From Escherichia coli (GTDB taxonomy: Bacteria; Pseudomonadota; Gammaproteobacteria; Enterobacterales; Enterobacteriaceae), in the NCBI RefSeq assembly GCF_017348835.2, contig NZ_CP071375.1: a DNA stretch of 64,000 nucleotides, one strand, 5' to 3'. A program made the position numbers and the translations under genes. Under the pieces are notes generated by a model. That model worked only from the letters and a program-made list of their open reading frames with translations. It made no database searches and was not told the DNA's origin. Positions 29,122-35,287 of this stretch are shown here, piece by piece (positions within the stretch are counted from its first letter, which is position 1; every line of letters begins with the position of its first letter).

Positions 29122-29156
29122 AATATGCCTGATGGTGCAACACCATCAGGCATATT
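29122..29156. terminator. bidirectional terminator hairpin between convergent tyrR and tpx
   Basis: 16-bp perfect inverted repeat AATATGCCTGATGGTG-CAA-CACCATCAGGCATATT. Confidence 0.6.
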
Positions 29157-30724: not shown

Positions 30725-30750
<26 letters not shown>

Positions 30751-31453
30751 GATGCCAGCGCAGCAAGTTTGCCATCGCAAAGATATATTTTTCGCTGGCT
30801 TCGTCGGAGGAGATGGGCGGAAACTCTGCGGTGATGCAATGCAAGTTGAGATCTGCACACCAACTGCCGAAAGAGCCAGGCGTTTCATAACCGACGCTGG
30901 TTACCAGAGGCAATTCAAACGCCTGGGCCAGCCATTCGCCTAATTCGCTGTGTCTGGGATCTTCAATACAAGCCAGTGGATCGTGGAATGAGACCACCCA
31001 GGCAGGTTGAATGCGGTGTATAAGCTGGCACAGCGCCTGGGTTTCAGGTTCGGAGCCAGGTTTGTCACCTGTCAGTAATACGACATCACGTTCTTCAGCG
31101 GCGCTGTTCCAGCGATAAACCGTTTCACCTTCCTTCCAGTTCGCCGCCGGAAAGTTTCTGTTTAAATCCACACCATTAGCATTGGCCCGTAACCCCAGCT
31201 GGCAGCCGTCAGGATTCACACACAGCACCACATGATGGCGGCGCAAAGAAGGTGTCAAAGTCCGCAGAGCACAGGAGAGCGTGACGACCGAAGAGTTTTC
31301 ATCACCGTGAGTGCCAGCCAGAATCAAACCACTTTCGCGACTGGCTGCAGGGGCAGGAAACCAGATTAACGGCGCGCCCAATAATGAACGTCCGTAATGT
31401 TCTGTTCCGGGCGGAAATGCGCCGCGTTCGGCGCGTGGGCGGGTTACGGTCAT
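30725..31453 (-). CDS. mpaA: murein peptide amidase A (zinc carboxypeptidase family)
   Basis: 242 aa from MTVTRPRAERG; 3' end overlaps ycjG. Confidence 0.9.
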
Positions 31454-31743
31454 GATCGTCTCTGGTTCAGGAAGTATTACAGGCAGTGTTGTGCAAATTT
31501 TGCGGATTATCAAATCCTTTTCTTCAACGCTATGTCATCGATCTTGTATCACCTTTTTGCCGGAAGTTGTTTGTATTTTCATTGATGTGCAGATATTAGA
31601 ATTGTCGTAATGTTATATACATGGCGTATTTTATTCTTATTGGTTCTACACATGTTAATCGCATCTGATTGATCAGTTCACCTTAATAAGTTTAATAAAT
31701 CGTACTGCACATAGTACAGTACGATGGTAGCTATATAATTGAT

Positions 31744-32382
31744 TTACATGAAGAATGGCTTATCGCCATCAGTCCCGGGTTGATTGATGCCTATATTCTC
31801 ACCAATGTGTTTCTCAGGTTTATCGATGATATCTGTAATTAATGCTGCGACACTCTTACGTGATACGATCGTACCTTTGAATGGTTCATTGCGTGAGGTA
31901 AGCTCATAATCAATAATATCTTCATCCGTCAGCCAGGCAGGGCGAAGAATTGTATATTCCAGTCCAGAAGCCTCAATTGCATCCGCAGCCCTGCGGAATG
32001 GTTTTAGGGGTTCACCAATAACTGCATTATTCCATTCGCCAAATTTTCCTGGAACTTCATCATAAATGCCGAGGGAAAGAACAAAGATCAGACGTTTAAC
32101 ATCACAGGCTTTCATCGCAGCGATCACTGAATTTGCCTGAATATCTAAATCTTCCCCCGTAAGGTTGGCATACACAATATCCTGTCCCTGCATGGCCTGC
32201 TTCAGTGCTGCATGATTCAGTACATCCCCCATAATAATCTGGCTATTAGTTGGATAGGGTTTGTGTATTTTTGCTGGCTGACGAGCAAATAAAGTTTGTT
32301 TAATGGTTTGTTTATCTGCCAGTTGATTAATCACATGGCGGGCTATCTGACCGCCAGCACCAAGAATGAGTACTTTTTTCAT
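31744..32382 (-). CDS. NAD(P)H-binding protein (NmrA/atypical SDR-like), apparently intact
   Basis: 212 aa from MKKVLILGAGGQIARHV (Rossmann motif); possibly the intact counterpart of the K-12 ymjC remnant. Confidence 0.7.
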   Translation of the reverse strand: MKKVLILGAGGQIARHVINQLADKQTIKQTLFARQPAKIHKPYPTNSQIIMGDVLNHAALKQAMQGQDIVYANLTGEDLDIQANSVIAAMKACDVKRLIFVLSLGIYDEVPGKFGEWNNAVIGEPLKPFRRAADAIEASGLEYTILRPAWLTDEDIIDYELTSRNEPFKGTIVSRKSVAALITDIIDKPEKHIGENIGINQPGTDGDKPFFM

Positions 32383-32399
32383 AATATTTCTCATGAAAC

Positions 32400-33330
32400 T
32401 TATCCCAGATGGGTGTTGAAAAAAGGAATAACTTTTTCCAGCGCCTCCTGAACTGCTTCCGGTTTGTCATACAGTTCATAATGTGAGAAATCGGGTAACG
32501 AAACTAACTGACGATCCTGCGAAACCATCGCCCGGCCATAGACTTCCAGTCCATCACGATAAGCACCGAAGGCACCGACTTTTTCACCAACTACTACCAT
32601 CACCGGCTGAGTCAGTAACACTTCAGTAAATGCGAAGGCATCCCAGGCCAGCGTTTTCTGTGCATGTGAGAACAACATTTTTGTCGCACCTCCCGGTTGT
32701 TGCCCGCGTGGTGTTTTATAGTAGTCAGTTGCTTCATAAACATCGCGTTCGGTCAGTCCATGGGCTTTTGCTGCATCCAGGCTGGCGGGAAGTAATTCGT
32801 TGATCTGTAATTCTCCACCACGAGCCTCTTTGGTTCGTTGCGACGCCATTGCATTCAATGCGCCAATCGGATCGTAATTGCTGAAACCTTCCCGAAAAAG
32901 ACGCCCGATATTAACACCCGTAATACTCACTACAGCTTTAATTCGTTTTTCTGTCAGCGCGGCATTAATGGCATAGCCCCCCCCCACACACACCCAGCAC
33001 GCCAATGCGTTCAGCATCAACATATGGCAGAGTTACTGCATAATCGATAACACGGCTAATATCCTCTACGCGCTGTGTCGGATCTTCTATCCAACGAGGC
33101 TCCCCACCAGATTCTCCCTGGAAACTGGCGTCATAAGCGAGAACGACATAGCCTTTTTCAGCCAATGCCTTGCCATAGATATTGCCAGACGTCTGCTCCT
33201 TACAACTGCCAAAAGGATGGACGCTGATAATCGCCGGATACTGTTTTGACTCATCAAAATTTGGTGGAAACTGAATATTGGCAGCAATATGCCAGGCCAT
33301 ATCACTATTGCGGATTTGAATATGTTTCAT
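32400..33330 (-). pseudogene. dienelactone-hydrolase-like alpha/beta hydrolase, paralog of ycjY, disrupted by a frameshift in a C9 homopolymer
   Basis: Two overlapping ORFs (32965-33330 and 32400-33023) each cover half of the fold; frames switch in the C9 run at 32977-32985 (G9 on the coding strand) at the GVCGGGG-Y nucleophile motif; paralog ycjY reads GICAGAGY there. Confidence 0.75.
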
Positions 33331-34250
33331 TACAGAGTTTCCTCAAAGAACGGAGCTAATACTGAAATTGCTTCAGCCACATAGGCTTTGCCGTCATAAA
33401 GATCCATATGGTTTGCGCCTTCAACAATGTGATAGCGTTTATCCTGGCTTGATGCCCGATCGTACAGATCGTCACTCATCCATTTGCTCCCTGCCTGGCT
33501 GCCCGCCACAATCTGCATCGGCTGAGTCAGGTACACTTCCGCCATATGGTAAGCATCATAGGTAATAATCTGGTTAAGGCTGCGCAAAGTAGCGTAACCC
33601 GGTGCTGTTGGATACTGCGCGCGAGGGGTGTGGTAATACTCCCAGGCCTGACGCAGTTCTTCGTTCGGCGCATCGGACTCCTTCATTGGTGCCAGTGGCA
33701 TAATGGCGTATTCTCCGCTGCTAATATCGCTGGTTCTGGCGTTTGAACCCGCTTCAACGTATGGCAGGGCATCAATAGATTTCACATTGTTTTCCCAACC
33801 ATTACGGAACATCGAACCAATATTGACCGCACTAACGGTACCGATGGCCTTGATGCGGCGATCCTGAATTGCAGCATTGGCTGTATATCCTGCACCGGCA
33901 CAAATTCCCATCGCACCAATTCGGGTATTGTCGACATAAGAAAGCGTTGTCAGGTAATCAATCACGGCACTGACGTCTTCAGTACGAATGTATGGGTTTT
34001 CTAACTGACGCGGCTCGCCGCCGCTTTCACCTTGATAAGATGCGTCATAAGCAATAGTGACAAATCCCTTTTCCGCCAGTTTTTCGGCATAGGTTCCGGC
34101 CGTTTGCTCTTTAACGCCCCCACCAGGGTGAGATACCACAATTGCCGGATACTGACGGGTTTCATCAAATTTTGGAGGGAAATAGATCACTGCAGACAAA
34201 GAGATGGTTGGATTATTGCTGTTAGTGAAGCTGACTTTATTATTCATCAT
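33330..34250 (-). CDS. ycjY: alpha/beta hydrolase (dienelactone hydrolase / S9-like non-peptidase homolog)
   Basis: 306 aa from MMNNKVSFTNSNN; stop overlaps the start of the downstream paralog (TAATG). Confidence 0.8.
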   Translation of the reverse strand: MMNNKVSFTNSNNPTISLSAVIYFPPKFDETRQYPAIVVSHPGGGVKEQTAGTYAEKLAEKGFVTIAYDASYQGESGGEPRQLENPYIRTEDVSAVIDYLTTLSYVDNTRIGAMGICAGAGYTANAAIQDRRIKAIGTVSAVNIGSMFRNGWENNVKSIDALPYVEAGSNARTSDISSGEYAIMPLAPMKESDAPNEELRQAWEYYHTPRAQYPTAPGYATLRSLNQIITYDAYHMAEVYLTQPMQIVAGSQAGSKWMSDDLYDRASSQDKRYHIVEGANHMDLYDGKAYVAEAISVLAPFFEETL

Positions 34251-34387
34251 TCCGTTCCTCATGGAGTTGTCGGTTCGTTTTAACGGTTGGTGATATCACT
34301 ATAGATATTGATCATTAAGTTGATTAGACCCAAAATCATGATTAGACCTATCATTTAAATGATTAATAGATTGTATGGAGATACTGA

Positions 34388-35287
34388 ATGAAGCGTGAAG
34401 AAATCGCTGATCTGATGGCGTTTGTCGTCGTTGCAGAGGAGCGTAGCTTCACTCGCGCTGCAGCCCGCCTGAGCATGGCGCAGTCAGCTTTAAGCCAGAT
34501 AGTGCGCCGTATAGAAGAACGATTGGGATTGCGGCTTCTGACGCGAACTACGCGCAGCGTTGTACCAACTGAAGCGGGCGAGCATCTTTTGTCTGTTCTT
34601 GGCCCTATGTTGCATGACATAGATTCTGCCCTGACATCCCTGAGCGATCTGCAGAACCGCCCATCCGGGACAATACGTATTACTACTGTAGAACATGCAG
34701 CAAAAACGATATTGTTACCAGCAATGCGCACATTCCTGAAATCGCATCCTGAAATTGATATCCAGCTTACCATTGATTATGGTTTGACCGATGTCGTTTC
34801 TGAACGTTTTGATGCAGGCGTCCGTCTGGGTGGGGAGATGGATAAAGATATGATCGCCATTCGAATCGGGCCAGATATACCAATGGCTATTGTTGGCTCA
34901 CCGGATTATTTTTCTCGCCGAAGTGTTCCAACGTCAGTGTCACAATTAATAGATCATCAGGCAATTAATTTGTACCTTCCCACATCGGGTACAGCAAATC
35001 GCTGGAGATTAATACGCGGTGGACGTGAAGTTCGTGTTCGCATGGAAGGTCAGCTTTTACTGAATACGATAGACCTGATCATTGATGCTGCAATTGATGG
35101 GCATGGATTGGCGTATCTACCTTATGATCAGGTTGAGCGGGCTATTAAAGAAAAAAAACTGATACGTGTTCTGGATAAATTCACACCAGATTTACCCGGT
35201 TATCACCTGTACTATCCACACCGTCGACATGCTGGCTCGGCATTCTCATTATTTATAGATAGGCTGAAGTATAAAGGTGCTGTTTAG
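34388..35287 (+). CDS. pgrR: LysR-family regulator of peptidoglycan degradation
   Basis: 299 aa with LysR HTH. Confidence 0.9.
   Translation: MKREEIADLMAFVVVAEERSFTRAAARLSMAQSALSQIVRRIEERLGLRLLTRTTRSVVPTEAGEHLLSVLGPMLHDIDSALTSLSDLQNRPSGTIRITTVEHAAKTILLPAMRTFLKSHPEIDIQLTIDYGLTDVVSERFDAGVRLGGEMDKDMIAIRIGPDIPMAIVGSPDYFSRRSVPTSVSQLIDHQAINLYLPTSGTANRWRLIRGGREVRVRMEGQLLLNTIDLIIDAAIDGHGLAYLPYDQVERAIKEKKLIRVLDKFTPDLPGYHLYYPHRRHAGSAFSLFIDRLKYKGAV

Follow-up and report, generated by a model that had tools for sequence, protein, structure and literature searches.

A hairpin downstream of an SDR gene beside mpaA in Escherichia coli and its probable descent from a mobile five-gene cassette

The spacer between an SDR oxidoreductase gene and mpaA, the gene for murein tripeptide amidase, carries a short inverted repeat in the E. 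coli DNA analysed here (a stretch of 64,000 nucleotides, hereafter the window). Does this repeat serve mpaA as a site for a regulator, or does it belong to the SDR gene and act in RNA? The original prediction favoured the former. It placed two 9-bp arms, ATCGTACTG-N9-CAGTACGAT, at 31699-31725, in an AT-rich spacer located 3' of an NAD(P)-binding gene and 5' of mpaA. The sequence at these coordinates is identical to the one described, and the setting agrees with both the gene map and the base composition of the spacer (GC about 35-40% against about 52-55% in the flanking genes).

The dyad and its RNA fold

The genes of this part of the window are arranged in the order tyrR, tpx, ycjG, mpaA, the SDR gene, two alpha/beta hydrolase genes and pgrR, and the window is 100% identical to strain PE164 across the 401 nt compared. 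The SDR gene is the intact version of the K-12 remnant ymjC. The features discussed below are:

30725-31453, minus strand: mpaA, which follows the SDR gene and shares its strand
31580-32243, no strand assigned: the 664-bp segment missing from K-12-type E. coli (K-12 aligned to the window with blastn)
31671-31673, minus strand: relic adh_short start codon, ATG>ATC (ATG in other genera; cassette alignment)
31678-31684, minus strand: relic ribosome binding site (RBS) AAGGTGA of the lost fourth cistron (adh_short), aligned with loci L005, L007 and L009
31684-31698, minus strand: A/U-rich tail 3' of the stem, UUAUUAAACUUAUUA; leader of the cistron that follows in the ancestral operon
31699-31725, minus strand: stem-loop of 27 nt, RNA AUCGUACUGUAC-UAU-GUGCAGUACGAU
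31726-31743, minus strand: linker of 18 nt from the SDR stop codon to the hairpin (alignment of cassette copies)
31744-32394, minus strand: SDR oxidoreductase of the NmrA/NAD_binding_10 type (Pfam), RefSeq start 32382

Several other details of the neighbourhood were recorded. ycjG and mpaA are convergent and their 3' ends overlap by 26 bp (30725-30750). A long perfect palindrome, AATATGCCTGATGGTGCAACACCATCAGGCATATT, is located at 29122-29156 between the convergent tyrR and tpx and resembles a bidirectional terminator. The second alpha/beta hydrolase gene (32400-33330, minus strand) is split into overlapping reading frames 32400-33023 and 32965-33330; it is annotated as frameshifted in the identical strain PE164 and is intact (310 aa) in strain PapRG-06-3. 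The small reading frames of the spacer, coding for 20-24 aa, are without any support.

Read directly from the window, the dyad is ATCGTACTG-CACATAGTA-CAGTACGAT. A repeat finder (element I3) gives it 12-nt arms which are 92% complementary and surround a centre of 3 nt. Transcription of the minus strand, which is the coding strand of both adjacent genes, yields an RNA stem of 12 pairs (5 G-C, 6 A-U and 1 G·U, i.e., 42% G-C) closed by a 3-nt loop. The lone mismatch of the DNA dyad becomes a G·U pair in this RNA, so the stem is uninterrupted and more stable on the minus strand. Indeed, the 35-nt minus-strand RNA folds with -16.2 kcal/mol (z = -5.5, none of the 200 shuffles being as stable), while the plus-strand RNA contains a C·A mismatch and reaches -12.0 kcal/mol only. 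The SDR transcript would bear this hairpin at its 3' end, 245 nt away from the mpaA start codon. An Rfam search of 31000-32500 returned noise only, the best hit having E = 5 and 15.6 bits (gathering score 91).

A palindrome of this size could be a chance product which never had any biological meaning. Perfect dyads with arms of 9 bp or more and a loop of up to 20 nt occur at 8 distinct loci of the 64-kb window (17 nested matches), and 7.0 +/- 3.2 are expected from first-order Markov simulations; by itself, the 9-bp dyad as first described is not significant. The extended form (12-nt arms, at most one mismatch, loop of 0-10 nt) is found at five loci where 1.35 would be expected in 64 kb, and the probability of such a form arising within the 290-bp spacer alone is about 0.008. 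Together with the folding statistics, this argues against a chance origin, and the comparison with other genera is more decisive.

Conservation across genera and distribution in E. coli

Close orthologues of the SDR oxidoreductase were found in other Enterobacterales at 78-93% identity, and those with a hairpin downstream of their gene share 78-85% protein identity with it. These close loci were taken from the protein index and not from the scan of representative genomes, in which the SDR query recovered one close but truncated locus and otherwise almost solely distant homologues (45-70% identity). A recurring cassette emerges from their comparison: a gene for a LysR regulator (PgrR) is divergent from genes for two DLH-type hydrolases, an NmrA-type SDR, an adh_short dehydrogenase and an OYE-type flavin oxidoreductase. 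In the window, the pgrR, hydrolase and SDR genes of this cassette span 31744-35287; other copies are at loci L005-L009, L094-L099 and L104-L107.

A matching 27-nt hairpin is located at an equal offset after the SDR stop codon in Citrobacter koseri, Klebsiella aerogenes/Salmonella, Kluyvera, Raoultella, Pseudocitrobacter and three metagenome contigs. In other genera it reads CCCGTACAGC-N7-GCAGTACGGG and is followed by TT[A/C]TTAAACTTATCAAGGTGA-N4-5-ATGAATCGT, where TT[A/C]TTAAACTTATCAAGGTGA is conserved in the five-gene cassettes and ATGAATCGT comprises the RBS and start of adh_short. The arms are conserved, and the loop and the linker are variable: the linker keeps its length of 18 nt and its first 6 nt (ATCAAT), the remainder being free to change. 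Because the dyad is conserved at the matching position in other genera (at least five), a chance origin is excluded; the notion of a meaningless palindrome is effectively refuted already by this conservation and retains only a very slight probability.

In L005, L007, L009, L095 and L104-L107 the 72 nt that separate the SDR gene from adh_short contain the hairpin. By these alignments it is an intercistronic element of a five-gene operon, located between the third cistron and the RBS of the fourth. The E. coli copy has lost cistrons four and five (adh_short and OYE) and has retained the hairpin, the AAGGTGA motif, which precedes the adh_short ATG in L005, L007 and L009, and a mutated start codon. 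Homology to the five-gene cassettes stops at about 31667-31673 (query position 88, the last of the blastn match, corresponds to window position 31673). Thus, the pgrR-ycjY-SDR block of E. coli is very probably a truncated copy of the five-gene cassette inserted beside mpaA, with the dyad at its stump. The hairpin, together with the dead RBS and start codon, is a clean marker of the assembly history of the locus. When the rest of the spacer (31454-31666) is compared with the sequence that follows the OYE gene in five-gene cassettes, no match appears, and the loss of the two cistrons therefore cannot be reconstructed as a simple internal deletion.

The cassette is horizontally mobile. It occupies varied chromosomal sites as well as conjugative IncF plasmids of Klebsiella, and its neighbours include an integrase gene (L094), an IS110 transposase gene (L099) and phage genes (L092). 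The hairpin is retained, at -12.5 to -19.6 kcal/mol, in every copy in which cistrons four and five persist, and has decayed (-6.5 to -7.3 kcal/mol) in four three-gene copies with other DNA behind them (L092, L094, L098 and L099).

These three-gene cassettes also contain a second hairpin, GGTCCGC-N13-GCGGACC, directly after the decayed first one and about 50-85 nt past the SDR stop codon (2197-2232 in L092, about 2190-2225 in L094, about 3200-3235 in L098 and L099). Beyond it the flanks of the three-gene cassettes all differ, so the second hairpin may mark a cassette end or a recombination site.

Within E. coli, the element is carried by 2,930-2,939 of the 5,426 complete genomes, at exactly one place per genome (lowest, median and highest count of 1). 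It is intact in 1,971 carriers and has one stem mismatch in 957 of 2,930. The mismatch alleles sampled were C7>A and A1>T, disrupting pair 7-21 and the terminal pair, respectively; stability drops to about -10 kcal/mol in such carriers. A lineage of about 560 E. coli genomes (90-95% identity), represented by PapRG-06-3 and O103:H2 strains among others, has a 19-bp insertion in the spacer at about 31605/31606 (positions 3706-3724 of L003); its sampled members, PapRG-06-3 and L003, also bear the C7>A mismatch.

In about 46% of the complete E. coli genomes, K-12 and B strains included, the element is deleted and mpaA is present. Along with the hairpin, the 664-bp deletion takes the relic RBS as well as two-thirds of the SDR gene from its 3' end. 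K-12-type genomes have a second deletion relative to the window, 32383-33272. The two deletions turned the SDR gene into the remnant ymjC and the second hydrolase gene into the remnant ymjD, and brought mpaA near the ycjY promoter; mpaA itself and the 126 bp directly upstream of its start codon are untouched. We also considered a role of the dyad in the formation of the K-12 deletion and rejected it, as the dyad is located 120 bp inside the deleted segment, away from the end points.

How strongly the stem is selected was judged from the alignment of cassette copies, where the arms are conserved and the 5' linker and the loop are not. Standard pairs are formed by 77% of the pair cells, compared to 22-44% after a shift of the partner by 1-3 columns, and the stem was predicted independently by RNAalifold. 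Both basal pairs have changed on two sides (C-G elsewhere, A-U and U-A in E. coli). One inner pair is either C-G or U-G, the latter pairing on the coding-strand RNA only. Strand asymmetry is mixed overall: two A·C cells of the degenerate copy L098 would correspond to wobble pairs on the opposite strand. The covariation score is marginally above that of shuffles (25/500), and the count of pairs changed on both sides is not above it (291/500). The both-sides changes amount to about a single evolutionary event separating E. coli from the rest, so that the support for structural conservation is modest. Uncompensated arm mutations (C7>A and A1>T in E. coli, others in L097 and L104), taken together with the share of carriers bearing a mismatch, indicate that selection on the stem is weak.

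The E. coli stem is the longest and cleanest of the family, with 12 pairs and a repaired 8-20 mismatch, and the base changes from GGG to GAU extend the U-run 3' of the stem. From the stem sequences we infer that these changes are compatible with a shift from an internal to a terminal hairpin.

Operator readings of the dyad

The function proposed in the original prediction, binding of a regulator of mpaA, found no confirmation: the dyad tracks the SDR cassette and not mpaA. It was argued there that a lack of conservation in related genomes would speak against the idea. The dyad turned out to be conserved, but its context points away from mpaA. The SDR and adh_short genes of Citrobacter, Klebsiella/Salmonella, Kluyvera and Raoultella flank the dyad without mpaA nearby, so that mpaA and the dyad do not co-occur across genomes.

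More generally, the dyad could be a double-stranded DNA site for a dimeric transcription factor controlling mpaA or an internal promoter of the cassette. Such a reading would make sense of the symmetry (9 perfect bp per arm), of the core GTAC.G / C.GTAC, which is well conserved across genera, and of the location in an AT-rich non-coding spacer upstream of mpaA; moreover, the cassette encodes the LysR regulator PgrR, and mpaA is listed in the PgrR regulon of K-12 (PMC5934670). However, the dyad is absent from K-12-type genomes, the very background where the mpaA-containing PgrR regulon is listed. It neither adjoins nor overlaps a promoter regulated in this way: K-12 retains only the proximal 126 bp, 245 nt separate the dyad from the mpaA start, and the promoter scan detected nothing sigma-70-like in the spacer. 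The ancestral site, in a 72-nt gap between cistrons and about 20 nt before the RBS, leaves no room for a promoter either.

The pattern of substitutions bears on the same question. Since covariation which preserves pairing also preserves dyad symmetry, some room is left for a role at the DNA level. Still, changes on both sides of the basal positions combined with a variable centre fit pairing better than base-specific contacts with a protein.

Searches for further sites gave little that would suit a regulon, bearing in mind that degenerate sites would escape them. The motif search suggested in the original prediction revealed one place per E. coli genome and no second close copy. In the window, no second match to the dyad was found with up to 3 mismatches, and the relaxed core has 21 matches (13.9 expected), none of them in the pgrR/ycjY divergent promoter region, where a search for a related dyad was negative as well. 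Altogether, we regard control of mpaA or of an internal promoter through this dyad as improbable.

An AT-rich part of the pgrR/ycjY divergent promoter region, at about 34310-34350 (minus strand), contains a direct repeat, GGTCTAATCA, in two copies whose starts are 22 nt apart. This repeat is a candidate site for the LysR-type PgrR.

Known operators and repeats were compared with the dyad as well. It shares dyad symmetry with the LexA and TrpR operators, and its half-sites resemble TACTG/CAGTA and GTACT/AGTAC, respectively. The consensus of the LexA SOS box is TACTG-N10-CAGTA, with CTG-N10-CAG spacing, and in the trp operator GTACT and AGTAC are separated by N8. A LexA box was rejected because CTG (31705-31707) and CAG (31717-31719) are separated by N9 instead of N10, and a TrpR operator was rejected on spacing too, the dyad being GTACT-N11-AGTAC. 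Unlike these operators, the dyad is located away from a promoter, has basal positions changed on both sides and is present in one copy per genome. The single copy also led us to reject a REP/BIME element or another dispersed palindromic repeat, of which many copies would be required.

A proposed role in RNA and the derived arrangement of K-12

We consider it most likely, with fair though not strong confidence, that the element acts on RNA as a protective 3' hairpin and/or a leaky terminator. It would fold in the polycistronic transcript of the minus (coding) strand and there most likely form a barrier to 3'-to-5' exonucleases, a weak intrinsic terminator, or both. As a consequence, the upstream hydrolase-SDR segment of the transcript would be more abundant than the downstream segment. 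In E. coli carriers the hairpin would mark or stabilise the 3' end of the SDR transcript and lower read-through toward mpaA, probably without abolishing it.

Intercistronic protective stem-loops which set mRNA ratios within operons were reportedly described by Newbury in 1987, by Chen in 1988 and by Dar and Sorek in 2018. Protective hairpins of this kind, such as those of malE-malF, puf and menBCE, are established, common and often conserved means of mRNA-ratio control within operons and block PNPase and RNase II (PMC5927463). Like the hairpins of malE-malF, Rhodobacter puf and menBCE, the element is a stable hairpin in a short gap between cistrons just past the upstream stop codon; it is a sense-strand stem-loop among co-oriented cistrons or, in E. 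coli, after the last stop codon. The structure is conserved in orthologous operons of at least five genera of enterobacteria with the loop and the linker free to vary, which is also characteristic of protective stem-loops. Unlike malE-malF, where a REP pair is present, a single small hairpin is found here. A further difference from intercistronic protective stem-loops is that the E. coli hairpin has become terminal, the downstream cistrons being gone.

The likeness to intrinsic terminators is incomplete. A stem of 12 pairs including 5 G-C, a 3-nt loop and a location on the coding strand 18 nt past the stop codon all resemble a terminator, and the stem falls within the range expected of one (G+C-rich, 5-14 pairs, loop of 3-8 nt). 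The original prediction had noted that no T-tract follows the dyad. This is true of the plus strand only; the minus strand has UUAUUAAACUUAUU, also given as TTATTAAACTTATTA, after the stem, which means UUAUU in the RNA, or UUUAUU if the last base of the stem is included. Unlike that of intrinsic terminators, the U-tract is short and interrupted, and G-C pairs make up only 42% of the stem. The tail UUAUUAAA has 4 U in 8 positions, where at least 5 are required, and the count reaches 5/8 only if both terminal A-U pairs are counted as part of the tail. The consensus promoter/terminator scan did not call the hairpin as a terminator, its T-tract rule being narrowly missed (4/8 T after the full stem), and the view that this is not a classic terminator thus stands. 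In other genera the tail after the stem reads GGGUUAUUAAA or GGGUUCUUAAA. Efficient termination is unlikely in the ancestral operon, as its two downstream cistrons have no visible promoter of their own.

Alternatively, the role of the hairpin might have been confined to the ancestral five-gene operon, leaving a neutral relic today, a passenger at the stump of the E. coli cassette. This explanation overlaps with the one given above, and we find it quite possible, if on the whole unlikely. The deletion of the hairpin together with most of the SDR gene in nearly half of the complete E. coli genomes would be expected of a dispensable element, as would the uncompensated mismatches of many carriers and their reduced stability. 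The neighbouring hydrolase gene is frameshifted in the window, which means that the cassette itself is decaying. On the other hand, two thirds of the carriers have kept a perfect stem, and pure decay would not predict the cleanest stem of the family combined with a lengthened U-run. Besides, even in the absence of selection a stable hairpin at the 3' end of a transcript has physical consequences.

A ycjY-ymjD-ymjC-mpaA operon is listed for K-12 and represents an arrangement derived by deletion. Where E. coli has the cassette intact, the hairpin could conceivably serve as an insulator, ending or destabilising PgrR-controlled transcripts before mpaA, and the K-12 operon would then be a by-product of deletion; we offer this as a speculation and hold it to be doubtful. 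If it were true, PgrR control over murein-tripeptide degradation would be a by-product of two deletions in the K-12 lineage, which fused a mobile hydrolase/reductase cassette of xenobiotic type to a gene of peptidoglycan recycling, and the native job of PgrR would be the regulation of its own cassette. PgrR may be primarily the cassette's own regulator.

Overall, the element can be considered an undescribed yet ordinary small 3' or intercistronic hairpin which matters little in itself. The locus, however, flags K-12 as atypical here: as its two deletions removed the hairpin and joined the gene remnants to mpaA, conclusions on PgrR and the co-transcription of mpaA that rest on K-12 may fail in the approximately 54% of E. 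coli in which the arrangement is intact.
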